Below are positions 9,555-62,719 of a stretch of DNA of 64,000 bases, piece after piece. Source of the DNA: Nitrosopumilaceae archaeon. GTDB taxonomy: Archaea > Thermoproteota > Nitrososphaeria > Nitrososphaerales > Nitrosopumilaceae. The translations under genes and the position numbers were made by a program. The number at the start of each line of letters is the position of its first letter. Position 1 is the first letter of the stretch. The notes below the pieces were generated by a model. That model did no database searches, was not told the origin of the DNA, and saw only the letters and a list, made by a program, of their open reading frames with translations. Location of the stretch: positions 832,001 to 896,000 of the forward strand of contig CBDBMG010000003.1 of NCBI GenBank assembly GCA_965207375.1. The letters run 5' to 3'.

Positions 9555-9645
9555 GCTATATACATTCATCACATAAAAATTCATCAGGTTCTTCCACAAT
9601 CCCCACACAAGTGAAGTGAAACCATCGTTCACATAAATCACAACT
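9555..9645 (-). pseudogene. PHD-finger fragment, probably the C-terminus of the transposase relic at 13470-14465
   Basis: Minus strand reads CDLCERWFHFTCVGIVEEPDEFLCDEC, matching CEGCDKWFHFVCMG..PENFYCEEC of ORF 19803-21524. Confidence 0.65.
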
Positions 9646-12320: not shown

Positions 12321-13469
12321 CTTCATAGATAGCCTGCACTTTTTCACTGGTTGGCTGTAATCCTTGGGCTGAAATTTTATGACCCAGGTACTCAATTGCA
12401 GTTAACATGAAGGAACTGTTGTTGTGTTTGAGCCGAATGCCTGCCTTCTCCAGAAGCAAAAAGACTGTTTCTAATGTCTGCAAATGTTCATCGTTTGCTC
12501 CAGTGATCAGTATATCATCCAAGTATACACAAACATGAGGTATACCTTGGAGAATGGTTTCTATGGCTCTTTGAAAAATTGCCAGGGCTGAAGCCACACC
12601 AATTGGGAGTCGATTATAACAATACAGACCCTTGTGTGTATTGATTGTGGTAAACAGTTGAGAATTCTCGTCCAATGGAATCTGCTAATAAGCATGAGCC
12701 AAATCTAATTTAGAAAATAACTGTCCTCCAGAGAGAGATACAAACAGATCCTCAATACGGGGGAGGGGTATGAATCTGTTTTGGCTGCTCGGTTCACAGT
12801 TAATTTGTAATCCCCACAAATCTTGATGGATCCATCTGCTTTAACAATAGGAACAATAGGAGCTTCCCAATGTGCAAACTCAATATGTCTTATGTATAAC
12901 ACCATTTTTCTCTAGGCGGTTTAATTCTGCTTCAACCTTGGCTTTCAACGCAAAGGCACTGGCCTTGCCTTAGGAGTAGCATCTGGGTGGATGTGAAATT
13001 TGGCTTTCGTAACCCAATTCCTCATTGAACAATTCTTTATGCCTCTCCACCAGTTCTTGGCAGTGACTTGTTGCTTGGCGGACTTGGTTTAACTAATTCC
13101 AGTCCAGTACAATACTCTTCAGCCAGTTATGACCTAGTAGGCTTGGGCCATCTCCAGTAGTTACAATCAAGGTTACCTGTGCTGTTTGCTTTTGATACGA
13201 AACAGTGACAGATATCTTTCCATTCACTTTGATGGTCTCTCCAGTGTAGGTTTTCAAAATGGAAGAGCATGGTTGTAACAATGGAGTGGAGTGATGAGGC
13301 CATAGGATGTTGTAAGTTATTTCACTGATCACAGATAAGCTGCCCTTGTATCTACCTCCATTTTAAGATCAGCTCCATTGACCTTCACAGTAACCATGTA
13401 GGGCTTTGTGTCTACACTAGTGGAATGATACATTGAGTAACTTGAATCTTTTGCTTCAGCTGCTTTATT

Positions 13470-14465
13470 AGCACCTCTCTTCCGGTTTTCTTTTATGGTA
13501 CATATATAAATGATCTAACCACATTCTGACATCACCAACTGATAATAAAACCTCTTCAGCAATTTTGGGCACAAACTAATTCAGAAGGCGAGTAAGACTG
13601 CAATTTATCAAACCTCTCTTTGATTACAGCTGATGGAGGCTTTCTCATTGGTGATATGGGTGACAACAAGGATACATACCTGAGGAGGCAAAAAGTGTCT
13701 GGCACATGTTCCTTTGCATTCATTACAGTTAGCACTACCCCAGGGCCTTGCAGGATCAGGAATTGGCAAAGGCAGATGTAAAATCAGTGGTACCAATGTG
13801 GTAGCTGTTTTGTCCACTCCTGCACACAAGATGGCAACATGAAGCATCAAAACAGCAAACAAGGAAAAAATGTATTGTGCAGGCAATTCTTTAATGCTAT
13901 GTAGTTTCTTTAACTGCCACACTGTATCAAAGTAATTGTACAAATCTGGTTTCTCCTTTTCAAAGCTTCCTTTTGCTTCTTATTACCTTTAGCATACTGA
14001 AGAAAGTATTTATGTATTTCTTGATGCTCTAATGAATTTGCTCCGTGATAAAGATGAATAACAGAGTCTCCACATGGACACTTATTCACTCGACTAATAT
14101 AAACATCAGTTGCCAAGTCCATGTTTTTGTCATACTTTTCTTCATCAATTTTTCTTGTTGTTGAGTCCATGCACGATCCTCCTAAAGTTAATGGAATAAA
14201 TACGTTGGCATGTGCCAAAGCCAGGCAGCCATTCTGTAATTCTACACGGTTTAGGTAGCTTGATCCACTATTTTGTGATGTAACAAGACATGCAATTGTA
14301 GATTTTTCTCTGTCCATATAAATTGTACTTCTTCATGTATTGGCCCTTCGTCTGCAGCACATCAGCTTGAATACAAAAAACATTGGTTTGACTTCTAGAG
14401 TTTCCTCTAACATTTCCAAGTCAGCACAGTGCTGAGATGGATTCTTTGGAAAACTCCCTACTGCT
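13470..14465 (-). pseudogene. Second, decayed member of the Zator/TP36-like transposase family seen at 19803
   Basis: NSGSSYLNRVELQNGCLALAHANVFIP, YISRVNKCPCG and LPIPDPARPWGS..C..C match ORF 19803-21524. Confidence 0.85.
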
Positions 14466-14925
14466 TTAATTATCCCAAAATAATTTTCTACCAACCATAG
14501 AGACTTCATCAATAATCATATATTGCATACTTTCTAGTAACTGTTGCAACCTTTTGAGATTCTCTCCTTCAAGGTCCTTGAACTCACCTGTAGTAGGTAG
14601 GGATGGAAGTGAGTGGAGGGTGTTACCATCAATATTAAATGCTGCCACTCCCGTTGGCGTAACAACATGGATCTTGTCTTGGAGGAGCAGTCTGAGACAG
14701 TGAGTGAGGTAAGACTTGCCTGTACCAGATGTACCCGATATTACCATACGAAAGGTAGTGGGATTATTACTCTCCATGTGATCTTTTAAGTTGTATGTTG
14801 CCAATTGTTTTCCTTGTAGTTTAGAAGAATCTGCTGCTGTTGTAAATTGATGTAGCAGAGTTGTCTGATGGTGTCTTGTAATAAATGTAGGCAACTCCTC
14901 TATGTTGGCATAGGCTGTGCTTCCG
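14466..14925 (-). pseudogene. Helitron PIF1-like helicase fragment
   Basis: GTSGTGKS Walker A, PTGVAAFNIDGNTLHS, IIDEVSMVG. Confidence 0.85.
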
Positions 14926-18827: not shown

Positions 18828-19802
18828 TTGTTTACTTTTTATACATGCTAAGCATTCAATAATCTTTTAGCAGGCGCACAAAATGTTACAGGCGCTTACG
18901 TAATAATTATGCTTGTTTACAGGTGCTTGTTAACAACACGCTGACATGGCAAAGCAGCTGTGTGATAGCAAATAACGCTCGAAAAACAGCAAAAGCTATT
19001 TGTCCAAGACTATAATCTCGAAGTTCAGGATGTAATAAAGTGCACGCGAAAACATCGTGCCACTGTAACTAATTATATCACGTGCAAGCCAGTGACGCAA
19101 TAAGCAGAAGCCGTTACAGACTATCGTCACCTTCGGTGAAATTCGCACCTTACTAAGGAATAAAGAAGAACAAGGAAAGGAATGAAGGATAAAGGGAATC
19201 ACCATGGCGCAATGGGTAAATCGTCTTCGGAATAAGATTTTCGTAAATGCGCCGCCATTACCTTTATTGTGTGAAATTTTTGGAGCCCTACACCTAGCGC
19301 AACCTGGTCTTACGGCAGGCTGGCTGGCAGGCTGGCAGGCTGTCAGACGAAATACAGGTGAATTTCGAAATTTTCAAAGTTGGTTGTAGGTCGAAATATT
19401 CGACTTATGCACCTATCATTGTCAAGCCCCAGGTACCCCAGGTCGGGCAGTGGTGGGGATGAGTGGGGATTTGCAATAGTTGGCTTACAAATTCCCCACC
19501 CCTGGGGACAACTTTATGTTGCAAATCCCCTACTGTTCCCTTAGTATGAGGTGGGGATTTGTAGGGAAATCACAAAATAATTCTGTAGCTCGCTAACATG
19601 ATATGCTTTGCTGCAAATCCCCTACTGTTCCCCATAGTATGAGGTGGGGATTAGTAAGAAAATCACAAAAATTAATGATCTACATAGCTTATACCTGTAG
19701 CCAACATAACGATACATACAGTTAGGTACATGCTACATATGTACAACAATTTCTAAATACTGAATGCTAAATATTAAGTCTTCACAAATTCCTCACTACT
19801 GT

Positions 19803-22800
19803 TTACAATTCTTCATTCAAGCATTCTTCACAATAAAAGTTTTCTGGTATGTTCTTATCATTGGTTCCCATGCACACAAAATGAAACCATTTGTCACAAC
19901 CTTCACAAGCTATCCATTTTTCTACTGTATCTGTATAATCTATGTATTGTTCGTTGCATACACCACAGTAATACACATCAGAAAGTTCACTGGCCTGCAT
20001 TGATTGATGTTTAGCCTTTCTATTCATCATACGAGTTCTTGCAGCTTTTATAGCACCTTGTTTTCGATTATCTTTAACAGTTTGTAGGTGTTGTATCCAC
20101 ATTTTCACTTCTTCTGGAGGAAGGAGCACGGTTTTAGCAATTTCTTCTATTTGAAGGTCAGATGGACTTGTCTTCAACTTATCAAATGTTTCTTTAATAT
20201 ACACTGATGGTGGTTTCACCATACCTTGTTGTGGAAGCAACATTGCAACATCAGGTGGTAAAAAATGCCCATAACATACTTTTCCTGTACATTCTGAACA
20301 AGTAGCCGATCCCCAAGGTCTAGCAGGGTCAGGGATTGGTATGGGTAAGTATGAAACATTCGGGCCATTACAGAACCAGTTAGGTAAATCCTTATAGTAA
20401 CCACTCCTGCAGAAGGGATGTGAACATGTGGGTTGGTAACAGCATACTAAATGAAATATGTATTGTGAGCTTTGTAACAAGTGGTTCTTTCTGATGTTCC
20501 ACACATTCTCAATATATGCAAAAGTGCTTGGATCGTCATCTTTCAAAGTACATTTTTGTTGTTTTGATCCTTTAAGAAACTGAATAACTTTTAACCTGAG
20601 TTCCTGATTTTTCATAGAATCAGCTCCTTCAATAACTTCAATGGTGCCTTCTCCACAAGGGCAACCATTAACCCTATTTATATAAACCTCTGTTGCAAGC
20701 TTCATGTTGTTTTTAAATTTGACAGAATCAACTTTTTTGCTTTTTGCATCTAAACATGAGCCTGCAAGAGTTGAAGGGATAAATAGATTAGCATGACCCA
20801 ATGCCATACACCCATTCTGCAATTCAACTCTATTGAGGTAAGATGCCCCACTGTTGCGTGTGGTCACTAGAGTAGATACAGTTGGTGTTTCAATATGCCG
20901 AGCTGTCCAAAAAAACTGTATTTCTTCATGATTGGGTCCTTCATCATTACCTCCGTCCACTCTTACACATTCTATTACCTTTGGTGAATTATTTACAGGG
21001 TCATTAAACACAGGTGAAAGGTGAGGAAGTGTCTGTAAAAAGGCTAAATCTGCAGCATGTTGAGCTGCATTCTTTGGGAACAACCCACTGGCTTTCACAA
21101 CCCCAACACAGACTTCCTGTGTGGTCTGTGTACCACTAAAGTTGTAGGAGGTAGTTTGCAAAGTAGAGGGATATCGATTTACATAGTCAGTATAAGTGGT
21201 AATAGATTCTTGGCCTTGTACTATTGGGGTTCTGTGGAGTCTGTGGGTTGCCATTGTATCTAGCCGAAACCCTGCTGCATCATCTCGATTAATATTTAAT
21301 ATGTGTCTTCCATCCCTGTATTGTAGTAAATTTAATCCTCGGTATAGAGCATTACTCCAATGGGAGTCTGGGTTATACTTAAGTTGAAATCCTTTTCGAG
21401 CTCTCCTACAGGTAACATGTGCAACCCCTTTGTACCTCACAGCAGATTTCCTACGTTTATTACGGGCAACACACAACTGAACTACAGTTCCATAAGAAAA
21501 ACTACGTTGATAAACCCTTTGCAAATGCTCTCTTATGCGATATTTCTTTCTTTAACATAATTCTCTATAACCTCACCAATATCTGGATAGTCTTTCAGTA
21601 TTCCTCTAACTTTCTGACTTTGCTTACGAGCTAGAAAATTCTTTTCCGCTATCATTTTAGCTTTCAAATATCGTGTTCTTCTCTGTATGCTTTTTCTTCG
21701 TTTTATTATAAGCGAACGTGCTTTTTCACTTCTAATATCATCTATTTTGATGTATTTCTCATTATCGGTACAGTCAGAATCACTTACAATTTCACCATTT
21801 ATCTCTGCAGCTTTGTGCTTCCATAGTGGTCTAATAGTATTCAGTTCATTCCAAAATGCACTGTGTGATTCATTTAACAGTTTTTGGTGCTCACTAACTG
21901 ATGACACAGCTTGTGCAAAATACTCTTCTAAGTTGGTAATAATTGTTTCCTCTTCGTCTTCACCATCACATTTGCAGCTTTCCAAAATTTGTGTAATAAA
22001 TTCATACCAGTTGAAATCTGATCCAACCAATAGTTTATCTAACTCTGATGTGGTAGGAAGAGGCTTAAGATTACTGAAACTGCTATCATGATCATCATTC
22101 TTGTCATCTTCATCTTCACTGCTACAGCTCAACTCACCCTGTATTCCTAATGATAACAGCACTGCACTTTCTTGAGTAGAGGCTATATTTTCAATGGCTT
22201 CTCTGATATCACTTGCCTCTTTAAAATAATTCTCAACTGTGGCAAAACGTTCAGTCATGTTTTGCCAACCATATAGTTTGCAAGCAGCTGTTGCAGAAAG
22301 CTGAGAAGTTTGACAGATAATGTGTCGCATAACTTCGCGTTCCCGATTGCTTTGTGCTAATGTAAGTAAATGTTTCATATCTTCTTTAGTAAAATGGGAA
22401 CGATTCTTACTACACATCTTGGACTCCATGATTTCAGTTAGCTTTGCATAATCCAAGCCTTTTAAAGCTTCAAGTAAGTAAACCTCAGCTTTACCACTGC
22501 TGGAGATGCCAATAGTAACTGCCACAAGTGGTAACTGTAAGAGTCTGCGTTTTGCCTTGGTTGATGTGTAGGTAACATCAGGAAAGCAAGCTTTAAATAC
22601 CTGAGAAAGAAGAACTAATCCATGTGCTATGACTATGTTACCTGCTTTAATCATAACTTGACAGTGAGTGCATTTTTGTTGATCATGGAACTGCATACAA
22701 TATTCATGTGCAATATAACAATACTCTACAAGGGAAAGTTCAGTGCATTTACTTACACATATATTATGCTGTATTTTAGTATAATCTTTACAGTAAGCTA

Positions 22801-22822
22801 AATACGGTTTATAAATAGGCAT
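19803..22822 (-). pseudogene. ~1000-aa DDE transposase with C-terminal PHD finger, split by one frameshift near 21530
   Basis: NRDDAAGFRLD, VRVDGGNDEGP, YLNRVE (43 residues between second D and E); C4HC3 PHD at C-terminus; ORFs of 429 and 573 aa abut out of frame. Confidence 0.75.
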
Positions 22823-22886
22823 AAGGATACTAATTGGCCTCCTTGTAGGTGGGCATGCATGGTCACTGTACTACAAGGAGGCCGAC

Positions 22887-24492
22887 TTAAAAAGGATGCA
22901 TGTGTCTTGATAACTGCAAGTTGGCATCTTCAGTAGTACTACACTGTGGGTCTTGTTCACTTACTGAAGATGCATCAGTTTTTTTGTCAGCTGCTTTACC
23001 TTGAACCAAACGTGTGGCATCAGGATGGAAAATATGCAGCCATTCATCATAGCGTTCATCTGGGAGGTCATATTGTTCCTCCAGCCTTCTTTCAAATTTT
23101 TTGATTTCTTCTGCTGTAAATTCAGTAATTCGATTTCTCTGCCTAGTAGATGGCATGTATTTTCTGATATCTCCATATTTTTTTATATCTTCAGATTGTG
23201 AAGAACTTTCAAGACTTGGCTCAGATTCACTAAAAACTGAATTTGGACTACTTGGCAAATCATAGCTCTCTACCCTTTCTGCATGATCACCAGAAGTTGA
23301 ACTGCTACTATTTTTATTGCCAATAGACTGGTATTTTTTAGATCGTTTTTCCTTAGCCAATAATTGCTTTAATTCTTCTTCAAGTTCACGACATTTGGCT
23401 TTGATTTCAGATATTTCACCAGTAATTTCATCACAAACTTTGTAGTTCTTCATGTTAGCAGCAGCATTTACCCTTTTTTCTTTAAAAGAAATTCTTTGTC
23501 TTGAATCTTTAATTTCTTCTTCAATGTCCTGGATTCGTTTTTCACGAAAATCTTTACTTAACTTCGGACGCTTGATTGCTTTATTAGCGCTATTGTTCAA
23601 GAATCTTTTTGAGCGTGAATAGCCTTTCTTGAAATTATATCCACTGTTGTATACTGCTTTTTGATCAGCCTCTAATAACATACCTCTCTTTGCTAGAAGA
23701 CTGGGTTCTCGTATAGCTATGTCTTGTGCACATTTATTGATCTCCTTTTGATAGTTGCTTAAAGGACGATTTTTTTCTTTTTTGTAAATAACTGCCTCGT
23801 CACGTACACCTTGTTCTAAATCAGGTTTCAATTGCTATATAATCAATAGAATATGTACATGAAACTAATTTGCAATTTGTCATAAAAATTAAATTACAAC
23901 AACAAATTAACTTGGAAAAGTATAAAATGCACTGTGCTAGCTGTCTAACTATATAAATTCATCTTTATTGCATGTACCTTCAAATGTGGTTTACATAGGG
24001 TCAACTTAGAAGATGTCGGACAAAGACGAAGTTGCTGAGCATCATACTTTGATGGTACTGATTCAACACTAGTTACTTCCACATCAGATAGCTAATTCAA
24101 AATCAGTGATAAAAACCATATAACAACCAAACAGACATGTACACACTATTTCACTATAGCCATATTTTGCAAGCACAAACCTGTGAAATATCACTAGTTT
24201 CCTTCAGTGATGAAATACTAGGCATGACTTCTGGCTCCAATGTCATCTTTATTACACTCTTATCAGGTATAATCTGTGTTTTCTCAATATCAATAAATAT
24301 TCCACCCCAATTAACATCCTGCAATTGAAACACGAGTCCAGGTTTTTGATGTTCATAAGGTGGCAAAATGTCAGAAAATGTTTGTAGGGCAGAGGCCTGC
24401 AGTGACTCCAGAGATGCCGCCTTGCCTAATCTCACTACCCTTCTCCTTTCACCAAAACAAACTAATACTTCCTTATCACATGTTTCTTCCAT
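22887..24492 (-). CDS. Spliced accessory gene: N-terminal ubiquitin/PB1-like domain, NAB NCD2-like domain, coiled coil
   Basis: Exons approx. 24492-24180, 24092-23978, 23836-22887; AVIYKK..LSNYQKEINKCAQDIAIREPSLLAKRGMLL..VYNSGYNFKKGYSRSK resembles NCD2. Confidence 0.6.
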
Positions 24493-25299
24493 ATTAAATC
24501 TTCGAACTACGCACGTTATTTATATGGAAAAGGAAAACGCACAAAACAACAAGAACCACGTTGAAACAAAAAAAGTTCGTACGAAATTTTATAAAGACGA
24601 GAGAATGATTTATAATACAGTATGGTCAGGTATTTTTGTATGTTTGACCTTTATACGTAGCTATTTGAATGTTCAATCTTTGTGAAATTGCTGTGCAAAT
24701 GCCCCTACCCTGGGGACAAATTTAGGTGACAATCCCCTACAAATCCCCACCCGTAGCGCGACCCGGGGTACCTGGGGCTTGACAATGATAGGTGCATTAT
24801 CGTTTCGTTTAACCAAGATACAGCATCATTACAGCCTTACCAATGCATTCCAGCTGGTTTTTTCGGGTAAAGCCTATTGCAAGGTTGATTTTTAAAGCGC
24901 AAAATTTTCCCGAAGCCGTACAATTTCTTACCAATCCCTACTATTAAGTACTACCGTACTTAATGATATACAACATTGAACACAACTTCAAAAAATCTGA
25001 TTCGTTCAGTAGCCCTACAACACACTTGTGTTGTGAATGTTTTGACATTAGCTCAAATACACGTGCATCCTTGTTATAACAGGTTTTAGGTGATGCATAA
25101 ATGTACAAAATATTTTCCAAGGTGCCAAATTGTCGATGCTAACTTTTGATAATATTCAAACATTGTTGGTGGTGCATCATCACCTGCAAGCTCTTTGTAA
25201 TTTTTTGAACCTTTATTCTCCGACAACAAAGTGTTCATGTTTGCATTATGCTTTGAATAGGCAATAATCGACACTTGAATGAAAACAAGCAAATAGTCT

Positions 25300-40010: not shown

Positions 40011-40154
40011 TACTAGTCTTCTCTACTAATTCAATCAGGTGCGATCATCTAATTTCAACTCCACTGTTCTACAACAAAGATCAAGTATGTACAACTCAGT
40101 AAGAAATTTATCCTCACCACAAGATGATGAGACCTTTTGTCCTGAGAATTGTAC

Positions 40155-41167
40155 TAGTGTTGTTTTAGTAAGGGCTTATAATTTTAGTTTTAGTAACTTA
40201 GCTCAATAATTTTAGTTTTAGTTTTAGTTTTAGTAAGATTACTGAATTATTTTTAGTTTTAGTTTTAGTTTTAGTAAGATTTCTGAAATATTTTTAGTTT
40301 TAGTTTTAGTTTTAGTTAGATTTCTGAAGTATTTTTAGTTTTAATTTTAGTTTTAGTTAGATTTCTGAAATAGTTTTAGTTTTAGTTTCAGTTTTAGTTA
40401 GATTTCTGAAGTATTTTTAGTTTTAGTTTTAGTTATATTCTAAATACTTTTAGTTTTAGTTTTAGTTTTAGTAATATTTCTGAATTAATTTTAGTTTTAG
40501 TTTTAGTTAACTAAAATAAAAATGTCTTACTAAAACTATTTTTAGTTTTAGTATTGAGTAAAAACAGGCTTAAAACAGGCTTAAACAGCGTTATGTTGCA
40601 TCATATATGCCATTTGAAGACGTAATTACCCTTAGTTTTAGTTACGCTTTTAGTTTTAGTTTTAGTTTTAGTAAAAATTTACATTCTATTTTAGTTTTAG
40701 TTTTAGTTTTAGTACTGACTAACATTTAATTTTAGTTTTAGTTTTAGTTTTAGTACTGATTTGCAATTAATTTTAGTTTTAGTTTTAGTTTTAGTACTGA
40801 CACGCAATTAATTTTAGTTTTAGTTTTAGTTTTAGTACTGACTTACAATTAATTTTAGTTTTAGTTTTAGTTTTAGTACTGACTCACAATTAATTTTAGT
40901 TTTAGTATTAGTTTTAGTACTGACTCACAATTAATTTTAGTTTTAGTGCTGACTCACAATTAATTTTAGTTTTAGTTTTAGTACCGAGTCACAATTAATT
41001 TTAGTTTTAGTTTTAGTACTGACTTGCAATTAATTTTAGTTTTAGTTTTAGTTTTAGTACTGACTTGCAATTAATTTTAGTTTTAGTTTTAGTTTTAGTT
41101 AACTAAAATATAATTGCTTTACTAAAATTATTTTTAGTTTTAGTTTTGATTAACTAAAACAACACTA
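40155..41167. mobile_element. Non-autonomous hAT-type element filled with (TTTTAG)n arrays
   Basis: TIR tagtgttgttttagt / actaaaacaacacta; perfect 8-bp TSD AATTGTAC. Confidence 0.93.
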
Positions 41168-43535: not shown

Positions 43536-44493
43536 TTATGTTATTAAACAGTAATTGTTATGGAGAAAAATTAATGCATTTACATTCTCCCTGCTCAAAC
43601 TGCTGCGAAGTCTAGTGACAGTTAACCCTGCTACTGAAAACAACCTTTCACTGCTTATGGAAGTTGCTGGGATAGCAGAAAGAAGTTTTACAAGCTGACT
43701 GAGATGAGGATAACGTAAAGAGTTGGCTTTCCACCAAGCTAAAGGATCAGAATTCCTAGGAGCACCAGATTCAGAAAAATACAAATCCACTTCATCCTCT
43801 AATGTAACAGATGGATTATTTTCTTCTCTTCCAAACAAAATATCCAGAGCTTTCTTCTTGGTTGGAGGTTGTGAATTTTGTGAGACTTGTGAGTCTGAGT
43901 TTAGCGTATCACAAGCAAATTGTAGCTGTTGTATTTGGTCTCTTAATTCTGCTTTTACTTCTGATATTTTTTCTGCATTAAGAAATTTTAGGGCTTTGTA
44001 CCGAGGATCCAAAGCTGTTGCAAGCACTTTGATATCTGAAGAATCAATGTCATCCAAATGCCACATACTTCTAATCTGACTATCAACAGATATCTTAAAT
44101 CTTCTAATGTTTGTTGAATCATTTTCTTTAACTTCCAGATGCTTGAGAATTCCAAAAAGAACAGGAAGAATTGACGATAGAGATGAGGTTGCCTCAGAGC
44201 ACAGGTATGTTGTTCCTATTTCTAGTGGGTGAAGTATTTTTACTAAATCACCAAGTAGCTCCCACTGTGTGGTTGTCAAATCTAGCCTTCTATGCTCTAC
44301 CCTTGTCACAGATTCATCTGCTAGAACTGCTGAAATTGGCCATCTGTTTTGAAGAAGCGATTCACACATGTAAAAGGTACTGTTCCATCGTGTTTTACAG
44401 TCATTTTTCAATTTTTGTTTAGGTTGATTCATGCTTTCTTGCCTTTTTCGTAGCTCTTCAGTAGCTCGGGTACTATGGTGGAAGTGTTTGACC
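43536..44493 (-). pseudogene. hAT transposase, C-terminal half
   Basis: DCKTRWNSTF, LDPRYK, WWK..IPATSISSERLFS. Confidence 0.93.
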
Positions 44494-44599
44494 GGTTGTT
44501 TCCCCATATAAGAATCACAAAATATGAATTATAAATATATGTAAATAACATTTATTCCAGTGCAGTATTTCTAAATTAAATGCTTGAGGAATGCTCTAC

Positions 44600-46020
44600 T
44601 GGTTCTAGTGGTTCTGATGGTTCTAGTGGTTCTGATAGTTCTACTGGTTCTAGTGGTTCTAGTAGTTCTTATGGTTCTGATGGTTCTAGTGGTTCCAGTA
44701 GTTCTTATGGTTCTGATGGTTCTAATGGTTCTAGTAGTTCTTATGGTTCTGATGGTTCTAGTGGTTCTAGTAGTTCTAATGGTTCTAATGGTTCTAGTGG
44801 TTCTAGTAGTTCTTATGATTCTGATGGTTCTAGTAGTTCTTATGGTTTTAAAGGTTCTAATGGTTCTAGTGGTTCTGATGGTTCTAGTGGTTCTAGTAGT
44901 TCTAATGGTTCTAATGGTTCTAGTGGTTCTAGTAGTTCTAGTAGTTCTTATGGTTCTGATGGTTCTAGTAGTTCTTATGGTTCTGATGGTTCTAGTGGTT
45001 CTAGTAGTTCTAATGGTTCTAATGGTTCTAGTGGTTCTAGTAGTTCTTATGGCCAGTTCTGATGGTTCTAGTGGTTCTGATAGTTCTAATGGTTCTGATG
45101 GTTCTAATGGTTCTAGTAGTTCTTATGGTTCTAATGGTTCTAGTCGTTCTAGTAGTTCTTATAGTTCTAATGGTTCTAGTGGTTCTTATGGTTCTGATGG
45201 TTCTAGTGGTTCTAATAGTTCTAATGGTTCTGATGGTTCTAATGATTCTAGTAGTTCTTATGGTTCTGATGGTTCTAGTGGTTCTGATGGTTCTACTGGT
45301 TCTGATGGTTCTACTGGTTCTAGTGGTTCTAGTAGTTCTTATGGTTCTGATGGTTCTAGTGGTTCTAGTAGTTCTAATGGTTCTGATGGTTCTAGTGGTT
45401 CTAGTGATTCTTATGGTTCTGATAGTTCTACTGGTTCTAGTAGTTCTTATGGTTCTGATGGTTCTAATGGTTCTAGTGGTTCTAGTAGTTTTTATGGTTC
45501 TGATGGTTCTAGTAGTTCTGATGGTTCTAGTGGTTCTACTGGTTCTAGTGGTTCTAGTAGTTTTTATGGTTCTAGTGATTCTAGTGGTTCTAGTGATTCT
45601 AGTGGTTCTAGTGGTTCTTATGGTTCTAGTAGTTCTGATGATTCTAGTGGTTCTTGTGGTTCTAGTGGTTCTAGTAGTTCTTATGGTTCTAGTGGTTCTG
45701 ATGGTTCTAGTGGTTCTAGTAGTTCTTATGGTTCTGATGGTTCTGATGGTTCTAGTGGTTCTAGTGGTTCTAGTGGTTCTAGTGGTTTTAGTAGTTCTTA
45801 TGTTTCTGATAGTTCTGATGGTTCTAGTGGTTCTAGTAGTTCTTATGGTTCTAGTAGTTCTTATGGTTCTAGTGGTTCTAGTAGTTCTAATGGTTCTAGT
45901 GGTTCTAGTGGTTCTGATGGTTCTAGTGGTTCTAGTAGTTCTTATGGTTCTGATGGTTCTGATGGTTCTGATGATTCTAGTGGTTCTAGTGGTTCTAGTA
46001 GTTCTTATGGTTCTGATGAT
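44600..46020 (+). repeat. 9-bp minisatellite array, left arm
   Basis: ggttctagt / ggttctgat / ggttctaat / agttcttat units over ~1.4 kb. Confidence 0.97.
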
Positions 46021-48960: not shown

Positions 48961-50767
48961 TCCTAAACAACAAAAACATCCTGGCTGTAAAAAAAGTACA
49001 AGGCCAATCAGAAGCAGCATTGTAAATAGGTATGTAGCTATGTATGTGTGACCAAAACTTTGATATCAGGTAAGATAAAGAATAGAACTGGTTAAAACTA
49101 GTGCGCTATGCATTTACTTAGTATACTATGCATGGTGTTTCCTTTTGTCCTTCTCTTTCCTCTATGCAGTCAGTTACTAAGAAGAGAAACTCATAAATAA
49201 CCCTGCTTACAGTATTAAGTCACAAAAAATAACCGCACAGTTGTCAAAATGCGTGGTTAATGCTTACTAACTAGCATAATCATTTTTGTATGTATGTATT
49301 ATCCTGTTAACTGTAAGAGTTATAATTATGGCATATAGCAGGCTTAGAGAAATAATTTTATGATGTTTCCAACTGTATTTTGCTTAACAACTGGCATGCA
49401 AAAATTATCAGGCACCTATGTATGCATCAAAGTTTCAAAAGTACTGGAAGATGGTGGTATTATTGGAATAGAAGCATTAACACCCGTCCTTGGCTCCACC
49501 TCAGACTCATGTAATAACTAAGAATCATACTCAGACCATGATATAACTTATACTTATTGAATAAACATAGATAACTCATACTACTAATTCAGTCATATTA
49601 TGATGTATTCTTAATGTTAATAAATAGGAAAGTTCGACGTTCTATCAAAAATATTGATACCAAACAGCTGATATTCACTGTGGCCATAATAACAAGGTGA
49701 AGTTTTAACCATCACATTTCCATTTCTTTTCAACAAAATCAAAGTTACAATATAACTACGTAGTCATATCAAAGAATGTTAGTTAGCTACTAGTCATAAA
49801 CATTGCTTCCTTTACATAATTTCCTGGTACTTGGCAGTTTTTTCGTAATTTCCTAGGAGCGACACTTTCAGCAGTTGCTTTCATTTTCTTCTGCTTTTGC
49901 TCTGACCTGTGCAAATTATGTACATGTGATCACAAAATAGCTGTAGTATTCATACATACATGTAAACTGTGTTAGTAGTAGTTTAACGTAGTTTACTATG
50001 CACGGTGCCTGGTTCGTAGATGGTAAAACATCAGCTTGTAATTTTATAGCAGAGAGAGGAGATTTCAATTTAACAAACCAATAGTTAACACAGTCAATGG
50101 AAGGTAGCTAACAACAAGTACAAAATCGTATGTTTTGGAAAGTCACAGACCAAAGAGTCATCACTGGGATCACATAACAATCCCTTTATAATCCAGTGTA
50201 TTAGCAATGCTAAAGTTTTACCTTCTAAAACCAGGCACCATATGTCTGTTACTATACGTACTGCTTTGATAAAAAATACAATTGCATCACAGGTAAGTCA
50301 CATGAACAATGACTCATCACAAAGGAATGCAGCACTGCATCCACATTTAAATTCAAATTTTTAAGTCTTATACTGAACAGCTAATACAATGTTATCTTAA
50401 TCTTCTTTGGTAGTAGCTAACGACATGCTTTGTTTGTTACTAAGGCTACACCCATCATCAGTGCCATAATTATAATGAAACTGAAAAGAAGTAGAATTTA
50501 CTAAACTTCATTAGTCTTTAATACACAGACACAGACGCATATCAACATCTGCACAGAAACAATTTCAGGAAACCAGGCATGCACAGGCCACAAGCTGGAG
50601 TTGGTTTGTTAAATTGGAATCTCCTTTCTCTGCTATAACAAGTTTATATTTCACCATCTAAAAACCAAGCGCTGTGTAAGTTAAACCACTGTTAATCAAC
50701 TGCTATTCAATGTATTTTAATAGTCACGTGAGTAAAGACTCATCATTAAGGAACGCATAGCAATGCA

Positions 50768-51445
50768 TACCTTCGATTGATTGTTTTAACTGTTGGTTAG
50801 TTAAAGTGGAATTTCCTGTGTCTGGTATAATCAAAGTGGTTAAAATTTGTATCATTTCACATGTTAACGTACATTCGATTGATTGTGTTAACTGTTGGTT
50901 AGCTAAAGTGTAATTTCCTGTCTCTGCTATAATAAAAATGGTTAAAATTTGTATCATTTCACATGTTAACGTACCTTCCATTGATTATTTTAACTGTTAG
51001 TTAGTTAAAGTGGAATTTCCTGTGTCTGGTAAAATAAAAGTGGTTAAAATTTGTATTATTTTACATGTTAACGTACCTTCGATTAATTGTGTTAACTGTT
51101 GGTTAGCTAAAGTGTAATTTCCTGTCTCTGCTATAATAAAAATGGTTAAAATTTGTATCATTTCACATGTTAACGTACCTTCCATTGATTATTTTAACTG
51201 TTGGTTAGTTAAAGTGGAATTTCCTATGTCTGGTATAATCAAAGTGGTCAAAATTTGTATCATTTCACATGTTAACGTACCTTCCATTGATGGTGTTAAC
51301 TGCTGGTTAGTTAAAGTGGAATTTCCTGTCTCTGCTATAATAAAAGTGGTTAAAATTTGTATCATTTCACATGTTAATGTACCTTCCATTGATGGTGTTA
51401 ATTGTTGGTTAGTTAAAGTGGAATTTCCTCTTTCTGTACAATAAA
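50768..51445 (-). repeat. 102-bp tandem repeat (~6.6 units), each an apparent 54-bp exon + 48-bp intron
   Basis: Motif recurs at 50787, 50889, 50991 etc.; minus strand unit gaag|gtacgt...ttttattatag|cagagac. Confidence 0.9.
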
Positions 51446-53469
51446 AATGCTTAAATTTTATACATTACTTTTTACACCTGTTTACTTTCAGTTGATTGTG
51501 ATAATGGCTGCTGATTAAGATCTTGTTGAAATTCTGAAAATGTAATAAGGTTACAACATTTTAGCATTTCCTCATCAAAATAGTTGCTTACTTGAAAGTA
51601 AGTTTTCTTTGATTTTGTCATCGAATATGTCCATATAAAGAATAATTGCTTTTGCTTTGCCATTTTTAAAATTAATTGCACAATTGCACTCTCCAACTTC
51701 ATGACTAGCCTTTCTTGCTTTTCTAACCTCTGCTGCTAGTTCTTCCTTTTTCATTGGTAAAATAAAAGGAACTCCCTCAAATCGAACAGCTATTGCTGGT
51801 CTTTTCTGTCCCTTTCGGTTAGGTAATATTCTGATAAACTGATTAAACTAAATTAGAGAGTTTTGTAATGTAATACAAAAGGTATTCTGTTGTCAAAGTT
51901 ATTTAGCATTTTTCAGTACAGTAATCACAGCTTATAAGTATTACTTTTATAGCAATGCCACAAGTCTGTATGAATAATACAGGTGTCACAGTCAAGTGGC
52001 AAATATAGCAAGGGGCGAAGCTACCTGTAAGTGCTATATTTGTCATGAGACACTCACTGAGTGCTGTATTTTTCATATGAAAGAAGTGCAGTGCTTTAAG
52101 TCTTAAAATTCACATTTCTTTATATATAGCATTAACAAAGAAATTGCATTTATACTATTTGAAGACTAATTGTGTCAATAAGCCAAAATTCCATAAATAC
52201 TCTACCATATTATGTCTACCCAACCACAGTTCTATAACTACCCAACCACATGCACACTCCCATATCATACCTTATACAATACCTACCCAGCCCATAACCC
52301 TACCCACTAGCTTGAAACAACTATTGGGTTGCGCCACCACTGTGGGCTGGCTAATCAATAATAACTTTACTAGAATGTACATATCAATCCCAAACCATTA
52401 ATATTGTTTTAGCATACATGATTATGTAGCTATCATACATATATGAGAAGCCTTGGCAAATTGAAGTTAACTTGTACAAGCACACTAGTGATTTTATGAA
52501 AAATAACCACTGCATTTGATCCTCCCATGCATAATACTACGTATACATATATTTTGGTCAACTCATTTTTTTAGTGATATTGTGATAGCGTACTGTAAGT
52601 CACTCAAAGTCATGCATGTTTTGCATAAACTTATTACGTACCATTAATGATTATGCGTGTATACTTCAGGACTCACGTGATAAAATAACATTTGTGTTAC
52701 CAAGTGACAGAATCACCTCAGTGTTATTAGTAGATTAAGATATCAAACTAAGGAAGCTTTAAAAAGGCACAATTCACCGAAAGCCACATAGTAGCACATT
52801 AAGTTGTGCACCTGTACATTTCCATTAGCCAGACACTCTTGTGCAGGTGCTTATCAATTAGAGATGATACGTAAGTTCCGCAGCACATGGCACAACAATT
52901 AAAATTTCTAATCAGTTATCGCCTATGCATACGAGACATGTTTTCAAAACCTAAAGTTACACAGCAATTTAAGCCTGTTAATAAAGATCCAATACATTTT
53001 AGGCACCTCGTACTAGATGATAGATCCGATCGATCTCATAGGTGGCCCTGCCAGGCTAATAAGGACATGTTAGTATATCCCATGTAATTCTGCACAAAAA
53101 GTATACACAATATATTGAGCTGTGTAAAGGCGGTGCACGACTTTCGGTGACTTACGCTATGCAAGCCTAAAAATAACTAAAAGTAGTTACTTACAAATAT
53201 TGTTTCAATCAATGGGATTTAAGTTACGTACAGTTATACCCCAGTACAAGTATAATATCATAGTTATTATCCAAAGCTGAGGACACAACAGATATTTAGC
53301 AAGCATTAGTTAATATTATACGTATCTCTTTGAATTTAAGAGAATTATTTTTCAATCAAAAATCAGCCAAATAAGGATTTGTTTAGTGGGATATATAAAG
53401 TTATATGCCATGCAGTACACTGGTATCGACCATGCTAGCTTGTGCTTTTGATACTTAATGTTTTGATTA

Positions 53470-53900: not shown

Positions 53901-56489
53901 CTAAATACTGGAGTATAATGGTGATTTAAACATAGGAATTAAATTTGTATACATACATTGTTATGTGTGAGTCTGAATTTAATAGCAGTAGATTTACACA
54001 GCACCTGGTTTTTAGATGGTAAAACATCACCTTGCTATGGACAGGCTTATTAGTCTTTAGGAAAATAATCTTCAATATTATAGCAAATTCTAAATAATGC
54101 ACATCATAATAAACTCGTGCATTACTTAGTAATGACTGAACTGTGCAGGTGTTAAGACTAACAACCATTCAGCAGAAAGTAAGCTCCACCTCAGCCTCAT
54201 GCAAATTAACAAAGGATATCTGGCCTTATACGGGGTTTAACTAATACATACATATGTATAAAGCCACACCTCATTTGTATCCAAATCTTCACAACCTTGT
54301 AGCAAAGCAGTAGCAAAGCGGTTGAATATATTGCTCTCCTCCTTACTGACTTCCTGGCTTTTAGGATCACTTGGATCAGCCTCCAAAAGTATTGGTAATA
54401 CAGTTTCTATCATATGCTTCAGCACTCTTGCTTTCATTTCTTTAGCAGATGAGTCATTTAAGCCATAATCAAGCATCTGTTAGATACACATGAAAGAAAT
54501 CAGTAACATACATAGAATTTCTGTTATTTAATGCTCATTAACACCTAGGACTCTTTGCACATATAATGAAATGTAAAAGTTTACCTTGTTTGTAAAGTAG
54601 AGTAAAATTGAACATCCTGTAACAACTCGGGGGTCGGAAATTCCAACAATTTCAAAGAATATAGGATTTAGTAATTGCAGAATTTCTTCACGACCTTCAG
54701 TCTTAAGATCAGTTTCAATCCTTACTACGACACCAGCCATAGAAGAAGCTGCTTTTAAATGGTTGGGTAGTTGTTGAAATGCTGCTGCCTGCATTGAATC
54801 CATAGGTCCTACTTTGGGAAGGTTGAATGGAACTAGCAGTGTGCGTGATGAAATTCTGTAAAATAAAACAGTAATTTTGTACCAAAATATGCACTCAGCA
54901 TATATACATTTACCTTTCATTTTTTCCAAATGTGAAATTACTGCTATAGAGAGGGCACGTTAATGGAAGTAGGCTACCACAAGCCACATTTGCTGAAATT
55001 GTGCCATTGTAGAATGAAACAATTACGTCTGCCACATCAACAGGAAAGCTTGGATCATCTATTCTAAATGGTAAATTTGAAATTGTTGACCTTTGAAGGC
55101 AAAAGGCTTTGCTACATTTCATGTAGTGGTTTTTAGCATTGTCGGCTCCAAAAAGTGACAGCGCTGCATGGATTGAAACTATTTTCCCGGTTGAAACTGG
55201 CCCAGAGACCATTACTTGTGGGCACAATCGAAACAGTTTTATTAGTTCTTGGTAGTGGAAGGTCATTATTCCAGCACCCATCATTAACACACAACTTAAA
55301 AAGTTATACATCAAACAAGTTTCCAATGTGTTTAGTAATGCTGGAAATGATGCAGTAGACAGAGGCAACTCCAAATCACATGTTATTTCTTCCAGTGACA
55401 GCTCCTTTGAGTTGTTTCCTAATAATACAGAATACTTCAGCCACACATAATTGTGTTCAGAGTAACTTATGATGTGGCCATTACTGTTTAAAGCCACCTT
55501 GTCTGAAAAAAACCACACTTTTCCGCAGACTTGTTTGCCTAATGATGAAACTCCCGCTCGTGCTACATAATCTGGTTGGTCCTTATGAAAGCATTGCCGC
55601 TTATAGCTTATGTACTGTGCAAGCTCTTTGTCACTAAATGAACACATCATTCTGCCACTCCCAAAGGTCGAATTTATTTGATTGATGAAATCCAATTTTC
55701 TGTGGACTGCAGCTATTGTAATATTATACTTACATAATGAATGTAAAGGAATATTAAAAATCTTACCTCTTCTCTTGGTCAAATTGCCGTGTAATTTTGC
55801 AACAATATCCGGTTTGTTGTTTTGCTTCAACAAAATCCACTAACTGCATACCAAAGTCTGACTTAGGTAGATATAAATTACCCCTGTATATTCTAAATGA
55901 CGATTCCTTATCACAGAATCTATATGGATTGTCCACTGTGACTTCATCAGGATCAATAAGGCGCACTTCAAGATCACTACTCATATTGATATTACTAAGT
56001 CACTTGCAGAAATGAGCATTTCATTTAAAGTCTCACTGTATATAAATGGCTCTTTGCTTTGATGCTCAGTGTGAAAAATAAATCAAAGACAATATTGATG
56101 ACACCTATTCAACTCAGTGCATCATGAAGTCACACCAATGGTCATGATGCTTTGTAGGTCTCATTTGATGTTAAGTGTACCTAAATGACCTTTACTTTGA
56201 TATGTAGCTAAACTCAAGGCATCATTAACAATTACATAAGGGGAAAGACATTTTATAAAGTAGATATAAGTTTAAGCCAAATGGTAATTCAAAATAGACA
56301 TATGTATCCTTAGAAGAATACGTACGTACATACATACATACACACAATTAAACTTTAAGTAGAAGAATAAAAGGATATTTAACTGAGTTAACCACAGATC
56401 TAGAGTCACTGTATCACTAAACATAGCTACATAGCTACATGTGCAGTAGCCCATAACATGATATTATTTTGCAAGTATTGATTTATGTC

Positions 56490-57958
56490 TCATAAGAACC
56501 ACCAAAACCTTTAGAACCATTAAAACCACTAGAAACAGTAGAACCATCAGAACTGCTAGAACCATTAGAAACACTAGACCCATCAGAACCGTTAGAATCA
56601 TTTTCCACCATTAGAACCATCAGAACCATTAGAACCATCAGAACCGTTAGAACCATTAGAACCACTAGAACCATTAGAACCATTAAAACTATCAGAACCA
56701 CTAGAACCATCAGAACCACTAGAACCATTAGAACCACTAGAACCATCAGAACCAGTAGAACCATCAGAACCATCTGAACTACTAGAACCATCAGAACAAC
56801 TAGAACCATTAGAACCATCAGAACCACTAGAACCATTAGAACTATCAAAACCACTAGAACCATTAGAACCATCAGAACCATTAGAACCATCATAACCATC
56901 AGAACCACTAGAACCATTAGAACTATCAGAACCACTAGAACCATCAGAACCACTAGAACCATTAGAACCATCAAAACCACCAGAACCACTAGAACCATCA
57001 GAACCATTAGAACCATCAGAACCACTAGAACCATTAGAACCACTAGAACCATCAGAACCATAAGAACTACTAGAACCATTAGAACCATCAGAACTACTAG
57101 AACCATCAGAACCACTAGAACCATTATAACCATTAGAACCACTAGAACCATCAGAACCATTAGAACCATCAGAACCATCAGAACCACTAGAACCATTAGA
57201 ACCACCAGAACCATTAGAACCATCAGAACCATCAGAAATATTAGAACCATCAGAACTACTAGAACCATCAGAACCACTAGAACCATTAGAACTATCAGAA
57301 CCACTAGAACCATCAGAACCACTAGAACCATTAGAACCATTAGAACCACTAGAACCATCAGAACCAGTAGAACCATCAGAACCATCTGAACTACTAGAAC
57401 CTTCAGAACCACTAGAACCATTAGAACCATCAGAACCACTAGAACCATTAGAACTATCAAAACCACTAGAACCATTAGAACCATCAGAACCATTAGAACC
57501 ATCAGAACCATCAGAACCACTAGAACCATTAGAACTATCAGAACCACTAGAACCATCAGAACCACTAGAACCATTAGAACCATCAAAACCACCAGAACCA
57601 CTAGAACCATCAGAACCATTAGAACCATCAGAACCACTAGAACCATTAGAACCACTAGAACCATCAGAACCATAAGAACTACTAGAACCATTAGAACCAT
57701 CAGAACTACTAGAACCATCAGAACCACTAGAACCATTATAACCATTAGAACCACTAGAACCATCAGAACCATTAGAACCATCAGAACCACTAGAACCATT
57801 AGAACCACCAGAACCATTAGAACCATCAGAACCATCAGAAACATTAGAACCATCAGAACTACTAGAACCATCAGAACCACTAGAACCATTAGAACCAATA
57901 ACCACTAGAACCATTAGAACCATCAGAACCACTAGAACCATCAGAACCATTAGAACCA
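56490..57958 (-). repeat. 9-bp minisatellite array, right arm (inverted relative to left)
   Basis: agaaccatc / agaaccact / agaaccatt units over ~1.47 kb. Confidence 0.97.
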
Positions 57959-61819: not shown

Positions 61820-62227
61820 TACCTTCTTCTTCGTCTGCAGAATTCAAAATCCTCTCCAGTTTTCTTTGTTTAACCTGACGAAACCATAACATGCTATATG
61901 TATTAGTTATATCACTATTATGAGTATGATATCTTAGTTATTACGTATATAGCTGCATGAGTCCAAGGCAAATTAAAGTCATTTACATGCTGAAAAACAA
62001 TGATTACTGTCCATGCACAATTACACAAGTCATTGACCTAAACAATGTACTTTTTCTCACGCAGTTACGTGAGGTAATGAGCCACCCAGCCACCACACCG
62101 CGCACACATAGCATATATACATACCATCTATAACACTTACTAAACCAGTATTTTGGGTGATACAGGGCAACCGAGGAAATTGTTAAGGGGCGGGGGCATT
62201 AAAACAAATTAAGTATTATTCTCTGGG

Positions 62228-62540
62228 CAGCACACACATGTGCCACAAAGGTCATACCAGCATGCTGCAAAGGTTATACCAGCACACGCACATGCTGCAA
62301 AGGTCCTATCAGCACACACACGTGCTGCAAAGGTCAAAACAGCACACACACGTACCACTAAGGTCCTACCAGCACACACACGTGCTGCAAAGGTCATACC
62401 AGCACACACACACGTGCTGTAAAGGTCATACCAGCACACACACGTGCTGCAAGGGTCATACCAGCGCACACATGTGCCGCAAAGGTCCTACCAGCACATA
62501 CATGTGCTGCAAAGGTCAAAACAGCACACACACGTGCCAT
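62228..62540. repeat. ~30-bp minisatellite (~10 copies)
   Basis: ccagcacacacacgtgctgcaaaggtcata and variants. Confidence 0.93.
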
Positions 62541-62719
62541 TTTAGAAATCTACAGACGAACACGTAACACATGACATGAGTGGTATGTTATTTTCCTCTC
62601 TTTAAACTTTGAACCCGGTGTTGACTCCAGCTATTCTATTGTCAGAAGGTCCGAATGAGCCAGTTTCATTTCAGAGGACATTTACAGTGCGTCCTACTGT
62701 GTAGTGCAATAGCTACGCT

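Follow-up and report, generated by a model that had tools for sequence, protein, structure and literature searches.

A two-gene cut-and-paste transposon with a broken DDE transposase and possible Zator/ISAzo13 affinity in a eukaryotic contig of an assembly filed as a prokaryote genome

The Locus and the Boundaries of the Element

The window, i.e., the whole 64,000-nucleotide stretch of DNA analysed here, corresponds to C4:832001–896000 of the assembly. Positions 19408–24796 of the window are a real cut-and-paste DNA transposon of about 5.4 kb, lying in a eukaryotic host contig. It carries two genes, one for a DDE (Asp-Asp-Glu) transposase and the other for an accessory protein, and all its long reading frames are on the minus strand. 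The ends of the element, with their terminal inverted repeats (TIRs), subterminal repeats, and target-site duplication (TSD), are as follows.

19405–19407 (no strand): left TTA copy of the TSD, by direct reading; all 35 uninterrupted paralogous copies have one TTG or TTA here
19408–19439 (+): left TIR (TGCACCTATCATTGTCAAGCCCCAGGTACCCC), in perfect pairing with the right one; its first 11–15 nt are common to elements at other loci
19449–19670 (+): left subterminal repeats, with four exact GTGGGGAT motifs, variants of the motif, and a 40-nt direct repeat (19538–19577 and 19631–19670), by motif count and repeat finder
24690–24764 (−): right subterminal repeats (GTGGGGAT and variants), by direct reading, repeat pairs, and motif count
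24765–24796 (−): right TIR, in perfect pairing with the left one
24797–24799 (no strand): right TTA copy of the TSD, by direct reading and from the empty sites

The two ends are perfectly complementary over 32 nt both by direct reading and in a repeat finder, which stretches the pairing to 42 nt at 95% with one flanking base included. The insertion itself can be read from the surrounding DNA because the transposon sits within a dispersed host repeat, so that 400 nt of the left flank and 172 nt of the right flank each match dozens of places in contigs C2–C4. In all 35 uninterrupted paralogues of this host repeat from C2–C4, where both flanks lie on the same copy, the flanks abut and have one trinucleotide in common, which is TTG in most of them and TTA in three. 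Such paralogous empty sites with a single trinucleotide indicate an insertion with a 3-bp duplication and place the TTA pair beyond chance. The target, a TTA inside the host repeat, was duplicated on insertion. The 32-bp perfect TIRs and the TTA TSD, both read by the initial annotation of the window, are thus borne out, and 19408–24796 has the empty sites and the TIRs looked for in a DDE cut-and-paste element. Exact copies of GTGGGGAT are concentrated near the ends: of the seven in the window, for which the expected total is 0.87, five are no more than 250 nt away from one end or the other of the transposon.

The host repeat in which the transposon resides (19008–19407 and 24797–24968) is at least 570 bp long and is present in C2–C4 in at least 35 copies with 72–98% identity.

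The Transposase Gene and Its Break

The transposase gene is represented by two overlapping open reading frames (ORFs); residue numbers of the domains below refer to the 582-aa C-terminal ORF.

21533–22822 (−): N-terminal ORF of the transposase, 429 aa from the ATG at 22822, with the stop codon at 21533–21535
21533–21551 (−): break in the gene, where the two frames overlap and about 79 nt (26 codons and 1 nt) are gone, from protein alignment and a sister copy (P0074)
19803–21551 (−): C-terminal ORF, 582 aa, stop included, with the DDE core, a Cys/His cluster, a homeodomain-like fold, and a PHD finger
20796–21302 (−): RNase H-fold catalytic core, residues 84–252, from an AlphaFold model, structural matches, and conservation
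20262–20483 (−): Cys/His cluster, from invariant or at least 90% conserved columns
20058–20219 (−): homeodomain-like three-helix unit, residues 445–498, from a Pfam Homeodomain match below the cut-off (E 0.0056) and homeodomain chains at Z 6–7
19821–19967 (−): PHD finger, residues 529–577, from PF00628

A conserved block of about 26 residues (GADAWRRTGVLTFDGN..KVTY) is present in all six full-length homologues aligned across the junction and absent from the window copy. The protein P0074 (732 aa, from a 4.8-Mb contig), which is 98% identical to the N-terminal part and 99% identical to the C-terminal part, runs continuously through the junction with these 26 residues. Since P0074 and the homologues keep the block, about 79 nt have been lost in the window copy with a frameshift, the length of the deletion being deduced from the protein alignment. 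A mini-intron or a programmed frameshift at 21536–21551 was also considered and is ruled out by P0074, which encodes the missing residues. P0074 itself diverges and stops after residue 724, i.e., it is broken elsewhere than the window copy.

The window copy is thus unable to make a full transposase and could be mobile only with the enzyme from an intact relative. The DDE protein of about 1000 aa announced by the initial annotation does exist among the homologues, many of which are of this size, but in the window the gene consists of two ORFs (429 and 582 aa) separated by a break that had been missed. The perfect TIRs, the accessory frame that is still open, and the existence of two near-identical copies with different breaks all point to recent insertion and activity of the transposon.

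The Catalytic Core and the C-Terminal Domains

In the alignment of 131 sequences, N240 and E243 are invariant, and conservation is 90% or higher at D90, D91, D199, D203, and E204. These residues belong to the RDDAAG, DGGNDEG, and NRVE motifs, which had been named initially as the source of the D-D-E triad and are indeed present and conserved. The AlphaFold model of the 582-aa part is of good quality (predicted local distance difference test, pLDDT, 90.2; predicted template modelling score, pTM, 0.81). In this model, the strand 84–91 ends with D90/91, D199 comes after the fourth strand (193–198), and E243 is at the start of the helix 241–252, with 44 residues from the second D to the E. According to the model, the transposase core is an RNase H-fold DDE enzyme with the triad D90/91–D199–E243 in the canonical arrangement. 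Structural comparison of the core gave the following best matches, with root-mean-square deviation abbreviated as rmsd.

Mos1 (3hos_A): Z 8.9, rmsd 3.8, 190 residues aligned
Metnase (3k9j_A): Z 8.8, rmsd 3.1, 172 residues aligned
Mos1 core (4mdb_A): Z 8.7, rmsd 3.2, 170 residues aligned
Foamy-virus and other integrases, IstA: Z 8.0–8.5, rmsd 3.5–5.2, 134–173 residues aligned

Among these matches, the mariner-type cores align over the largest number of residues. A Foldseek search of the PDB with the 582-aa model listed PHD fingers only, at E of 0.0027 or higher, with Mos1 at rank 22 (probability 0.63).

Downstream of the core, the set of Cys/His residues conserved in at least 90% of the 131 sequences (H357, C371, C376, H378, C381, C421, C426, and H429) forms a cluster that is probably zinc-binding. 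It is followed by the homeodomain-like unit, to which homeodomain chains align over 53–60 residues with rmsd of 1.4–2.8.

The C-terminal PHD finger, also noticed initially, is well supported by its Pfam score (PF00628, E 1.1e-7, 32.2 bits with a cut-off of 24) and has the Cys4-His-Cys3 pattern, and 15 of 21 family members have a PHD match in Pfam. PHD structures superimpose on it with Z of about 7 and rmsd of 1.9. Its sequence matches in the PDB are PHF20, Spp1, MLL5, and CFP1 at E from 4.5e-6 to 5e-5, and also PHF23 and KDM5, up to 1e-4. Several of the PHD structures matched by Foldseek and structural comparison are, by their entry titles, complexes with H3K4me2/3 peptides. Across the family alignment of the transposase, aromatic residues (Y, Y/F, W, and W) are retained in Y-C, x-Y, W-I-x-C, and x-W-x-H, and we take them to be the equivalents of the cage residues of BPTF.

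The N-terminal half of the transposase was modelled with pLDDT of 86.5. Structure searches with it gave nothing specific, returning generic long-helix matches (best Z 8.0) and weak winged-helix-like ones (Foldseek E of 0.17 or higher).

The Accessory Gene and Its Product

The second gene is located upstream of the transposase gene on the same strand and is predicted to consist of three exons.

24181–24492 (−): accessory exon 1, about 104 aa, from the splice model; its N-terminal domain is also found in the homologue P0280
23978–24091 (−): putative accessory exon 2, from the in-frame model and consensus splice sites
22887–23834 (−): accessory exon 3, 315 aa including the stop, with an NCD2-like stretch, a coiled coil, a Ser-rich linker, and a C-terminal conserved block, from the ORF and homologue alignment
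23616–23783 (−): NCD2-like stretch, exon-3 residues 18–73 (PF04905, E 0.014, 15.9 bits)

The upstream spliced gene proposed in the initial annotation is well matched by this model, in which the three exons join in frame into a protein of 457 aa through predicted consensus splice sites (CAG/GTTTGT, TTTGAATTAG/, AAG/GTACAT, and TTATATAG/, the slash marking the junction). A predicted two-exon model without exon 2 is also open and would give 419 aa.

The gap between the accessory stop codon (22887–22889) and the transposase ATG (22822) is only 64 nt, with both genes on the same strand, and one may ask whether the accessory exons and the transposase form a single spliced gene for a fusion protein. 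This is very improbable: NCBI models separate genes in Dendronephthya, the accessory homologues end in a conserved C-terminus (..HPF, then stop), and full-length homologues of the transposase begin close to the same Met. The accessory gene would thus be a separate one.

Alignment of 14 accessory homologues revealed four common regions. The first is the block PLSNYQK..NK.A.DIA..DPSLL..RG.LLEA....VY.SGY.FKKGYSRSKRF; the others are a coiled coil, some residues of which are invariant, a Ser-rich linker, and a C-terminal block with HPF at its end. Outside the coiled coil, the Pfam match that recurs is NCD2 (PF04905): it appears in nine of the 14 homologues in the same region, covering profile positions of about 48–125 of 125. 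With a gathering cut-off of 25 bits, the scores are 28.1 (E 2.2e-6), 24.5, 23.1, 21.1, 20.0, 19.1, 18.7, 15.9 (the window copy), and 15.3 bits, so that one of the 14 homologues passes. The likeness to NCD2 of NAB corepressors noticed at the outset is therefore weak in the window copy and recurrent in the homologues, and this stretch is probably distantly homologous to part of NCD2, short of membership in the family. As compared with NAB1/NAB2, the likeness lies in the N-proximal 55–75 residues of the accessory protein, which match the NCD2 profile over its C-terminal half; in contrast to these proteins, only part of NCD2 is covered and NCD1 is absent. A profile search with the accessory alignment, word-limited and with 8000 candidates scored, returned no NAB protein and only two new fragments. 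A prediction of a complex of the N- and C-terminal parts of the transposase with the accessory core (score 0.00, mark 0.32) weighs neither for nor against binding.

Distribution and Common Features of the Family

A word-indexed search with the 582-aa ORF found 699 proteins at E≤0.001, many of them 950–1019 aa long. In an exhaustive HMMER search, 2062 representatives of clusters defined at 50% identity were found at E≤0.001, 1115 of them at E≤1e-10 and 292 at E≤1e-30. The named proteins of the family come from octocorals only, namely from Paramuricea clavata (“Chromatin modification-related YNG2”) and Dendronephthya gigantea. In D. gigantea, the genes for homologues of the transposase and the accessory protein have adjacent numbers, LOC114531845 and LOC114531847, and both are located on a contig of 1,171,076 nt.

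A scan of metagenome contigs yielded 80 family loci. An accessory homologue is encoded upstream on the same strand at 22 of the 26 loci where the sequence preceding the catalytic ORF extends over 2.8 kb or more, with short fragments among the other four; the second gene is thus part of the element, as had been proposed. When copies were collected through the terminal pattern (TGCACCTATCAATGT with up to three mismatches, then a run of C or G), TAA or TTA flanked 22 of 26 matches, the background being 5.3%; of the remaining matches, one is cut by the contig end and three are chance-like. Identical TWA (TAA or TTA) flanks were observed in seven of eight elements with both ends paired (the window element, two short elements described below, and loci L015, L019, L027, and L091), while L045 has TAA on one side and TTA on the other. 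The GTGGGGAT motif follows the termini at other loci too. The early suggestion that the transposon belongs to a family with TWA TSDs has therefore held. This animal family is widespread and is characterised by common TGCACCTATCA... termini, TWA 3-bp duplications, GTGGGGAT subterminal repeats, and two genes on the same strand.

Two short elements in the host contigs, C2:106889–107290 (402 bp) and C4:533921–534206 (286 bp), carry the family termini between TAA duplications and seem to be its non-autonomous derivatives, resembling miniature inverted-repeat transposable elements. Two lone family ends flanked by TAA were also found, at C4:738698 and C4:302532.

The window contains remains of a different, older copy as well:

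13449–14476 (−): degraded fragment of a related transposase, by tblastn and DNA identity

This relic, also suspected initially, is 42% identical to residues 599–913 of the protein P0010, with frame changes; tblastn with P0010 residues 599–952 matches it in two frames at 42% and 33%. At the DNA level, it is 64% identical to the transposon. A PHD-like fragment at 9562–9642 (−) matches the C-terminus of P0010 (55% over 29 aa, E 3.5e-5), and two further GTGGGGAT motifs are located below the relic, at 9599 and 12810. The fragment, the two motifs, and the relic may be scattered remains of one old element.

Relation to Zator, ISAzo13, and Other DDE Transposons

The explanation of the locus as a whole, which is held with good confidence, is that of a recently inserted, two-gene cut-and-paste transposon with a DDE transposase and a helper, whose transposase is broken and whose most likely affinity is with a Zator/ISAzo13-like branch. 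The assignment of the superfamily to this branch of compact DDE transposases is itself unproven and stands at about even chances. The transposon probably belongs to Zator or sits beside it, membership being undemonstrated. Several articles describe Zator as having 3-bp TSDs and similarity to ISAzo13/TP36 (PMC10045372, PMC7386202, PMC4455052), the 3-bp TSD being common to Zator and ISAzo13 (PMC10045372). In fungi, Zator is reported mainly from Rhizophagus, with single occurrences in Basidiomycota (PMC5751038).

The 3-bp TSD expected of Zator is found here (TTA at the window element and TWA at the family termini). Further points of likeness are the compact DDE core with about 43–44 residues from D to E (44 here vs 43 in ISAzo13), the lack of a Pfam match, and the occurrence in marine invertebrates. 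In the ESM Atlas, the nearest named clusters are of PF07592, at 0.84 and 0.83, which is below the trust level of the tool, and the best match, at 0.95, is a Mucoromycota cluster; a second search with full-length P0010 led to a Mucoromycota cluster only, at 0.75.

A number of results weigh against this affinity. In an ungapped scan of 12-column windows against ISAzo13, the E motif came out on top and in register (SGASYLNRVELQ vs PGTSKWNKIEHR, score 18.7), but 17 of 200 column shuffles scored as high; the D2 (D-G-G) block, fourth among independent windows, scored 13.1, a value attained in 152 of 200 shuffles, and the rank of the D1 block was 4357. PF07592 was found in none of 21 family members at E≤5. 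No transposase family of Pfam matched four ORFs or the 21 members, NCBIfam likewise gave none, and tblastn of the core against plasmids gave no match. Comparisons were also made with an ISAzo13 set that had been retrieved by a motif; ten of ten tested are PF07592 at E≤5e-115, and 34 were aligned. In hhalign, whole alignments, trimmed cores, and catalytic segments compared with these 34 transposases gave probabilities of 0.08–2.4% with DDE out of register, and the catalytic cores alone gave E of 0.63, again out of register. In the comparison of the whole families (probability 1–2.4%), only the helix-turn-helix region before the core, which is the block deleted in the window copy, aligned sensibly. 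With hmmsearch --max, neither direction of the search exceeded 5 bits. Further, Mos1 is tied within 1 Z unit with the retroviral integrases and IstA; since the differences in Z are below 1 unit, the fold indicates a DDE enzyme and gives no superfamily assignment. As for the helper, its splicing is a model; a listing of sequencing runs gave 20 DNA or unknown-type records from five studies and no RNA record. The Zator/TP36 link drawn in the initial annotation reaches significance in none of these profile comparisons, and only the language-model search points to it.

There are also differences from Zator and ISAzo13/TP36: the transposases are about 1000 aa here and about 400 aa among the ISAzo13 proteins retrieved, and neither HMMER nor HHalign gave significant similarity. 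The present family has in addition a Cys/His cluster, a homeodomain-like unit, a PHD finger, and a conserved second gene, and its termini are TG...CA, while the initial annotation gives GG termini for Zator. Among 151 genomes of the prokaryote’s phylum, PF07592 was found above the cut-off in none.

It may be that the element is an ordinary Zator that is already catalogued (e.g., a cnidarian “Zator-N” of Repbase or Dfam), with two genes and a PHD finger as its known features; this is a serious possibility, put just short of even. The 3-bp TSD, the compact DDE core, and the ESM Atlas lead to PF07592 and Mucoromycota all fit. A missing PF07592 match would be expected of a true Zator, since RNase H domains of Repbase Zator elements are reported to have no detectable Pfam similarity (PMC5751038), and Zator is reported from bivalves among molluscs (PMC10294476). 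However, the profile comparisons with ISAzo13 are negative, and in the article texts searched, neither a PHD finger nor a second gene is mentioned for Zator. The family is poorly catalogued, and its novelty is uncertain.

Alternatively, the family may be a separate, unnamed lineage of compact DDE transposons at the superfamily level, no closer to Zator/ISAzo13 than to IS630/Tc1/mariner or integrases, with the TWA target acquired by convergence. The non-significance of all HMM and profile–profile tests against ISAzo13, the absence of any Pfam or NCBIfam transposase family, and the unusual set of a Cys/His cluster, a homeodomain-like unit, a PHD finger, and an NCD2-like helper speak for such a lineage. 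It is nevertheless rather unlikely in view of the Atlas neighbours in PF07592, the shared 3-bp TSD, and the D-to-E spacing and the motifs G-[ST]-S-x-x-N-[KR]-[IV]-E and D-G-G, all resembling ISAzo13.

PIF/Harbinger (PHIS) elements likewise duplicate TWA (TTA/TAA) and carry two genes on one strand, both of which appear to be retained in the present family too. That the element is a divergent member of this group is highly improbable, however: neither DDE_Tnp_4 nor Plant_tran matched the 21 members at E≤5, no Myb/SANT domain was found in 14 accessory homologues at E≤1 among the best 25 of 55 families listed, and the Atlas neighbours are of PF07592 and not of PHIS families. The typical Harbinger transposase is about 400 aa long, while that of the present family is much longer, at about 1000 aa, and bears a PHD finger, and the second protein here is NCD2-like with a coiled coil.

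With Tc1/mariner (Mos1, Metnase/SETMAR), the Zator/ISAzo13-like candidate has in common an RNase H fold that is compact and lacks a large insertion domain, and these are its best structural core matches (Z 8.7–8.9 over 170–190 residues). The differences are a 2-bp TA duplication there vs the 3-bp TWA here, a D-to-E spacing of 34–41 there vs 44 here, and no match to DDE_1, DDE_3, or Transposase_1 here, with 7–9% identity in the structural alignments. The compact D-to-E spacing, together with the length of the TSD, also led to the rejection of Academ, hAT, MuDR, P, Kolobok, CMC, Transib, and piggyBac, judged by the features for which these superfamilies are generally known.

Possible Mechanism and Significance

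In the proposed mechanism, the N-terminal half and the homeodomain-like unit would bind the ends and the subterminal repeats, and the DDE core would excise the element and insert it at TWA, where the target is cut with a 3-bp stagger. With H3K4me2/3 readers as its closest relatives, the PHD finger might tether the enzyme to marked nucleosomes, thereby biasing the landing site. The accessory protein, with its NCD2-like stretch and coiled coil, may be an oligomeric cofactor or a regulator of transposition, by analogy with the second protein of PIF/Harbinger. The window copy would move only with a transposase supplied in trans. It counts against the overall explanation that these roles, from the binding of the ends to the part played by the accessory protein and the PHD finger, are without exception inferred.

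The RAG1/RAG2 system and ProtoRAG combine a DDE recombinase with an H3K4me3-reading PHD finger and two genes in one element; there, it is the second protein, RAG2, that bears the PHD finger, and the duplications made by the Transib-like core are of 5 bp. The present transposon is alike in having a DDE enzyme, a PHD finger, and two genes, but there is no sequence or fold-specific link.

A bolder and quite improbable proposal is that of an undescribed animal lineage at the superfamily level, with PHD-guided integration and an obligatory helper that has NCD2 in common with metazoan NAB proteins. In that case, either NCD2 of NAB was domesticated from the helper, or a host module was captured by the transposon to control its own chromatin. 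If the PHD finger steers integration and the helper acts on chromatin, the element would provide a natural example, in compact form, of a transposase linked to histone reading, with relevance to targeting and to domestication (RAG2-like logic, the origin of NAB).

More immediately, no transposase model of Pfam or NCBIfam covers the family, and its proteins of about 1000 aa are annotated as “uncharacterized” or, via the PHD finger, as chromatin factors, as with “Chromatin modification-related YNG2” above. With the ends, the TWA target, the triad, and the two-gene layout defined, correct masking and classification become possible.

Assembly Context and Other Observations

ORFs of at least 150 aa cover 78% of C1 (2.16 Mb) vs 11–19% of C2–C4 (0.43, 0.78, and 0.93 Mb; 2.14 Mb in total). 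This contrast in ORF density indicates that the window is eukaryotic host DNA filed with a prokaryote genome; C2–C4 look like host contigs, probably of a marine invertebrate, binned with its symbiont. An assembly filed as prokaryote thus holds 2.1 Mb of eukaryotic host DNA. It is recorded as a prokaryote genome that is 99.95% complete, and C2–C4 are rich in eukaryote-type repeats and spliced genes.

C1 contains seven copies of a 366–371-aa ORF (e.g., 288781–288951 and 551481–551651) with a weak match to PF07592, below the cut-off (positions 198–259, E of about 3e-4). The symbiont probably has here an insertion sequence of the IS630 type, unrelated to the transposon.

Finally, the window bears tandem arrays at 44487–45800, 56475–57700, 40093–41150, 50600–51577, 442–828, and 62223–62586. 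Two of them have a 9-bp period, with about 140 overlapping register copies each and a strong GC/AT skew; the periods of the others are 41, 102, and 30 bp.

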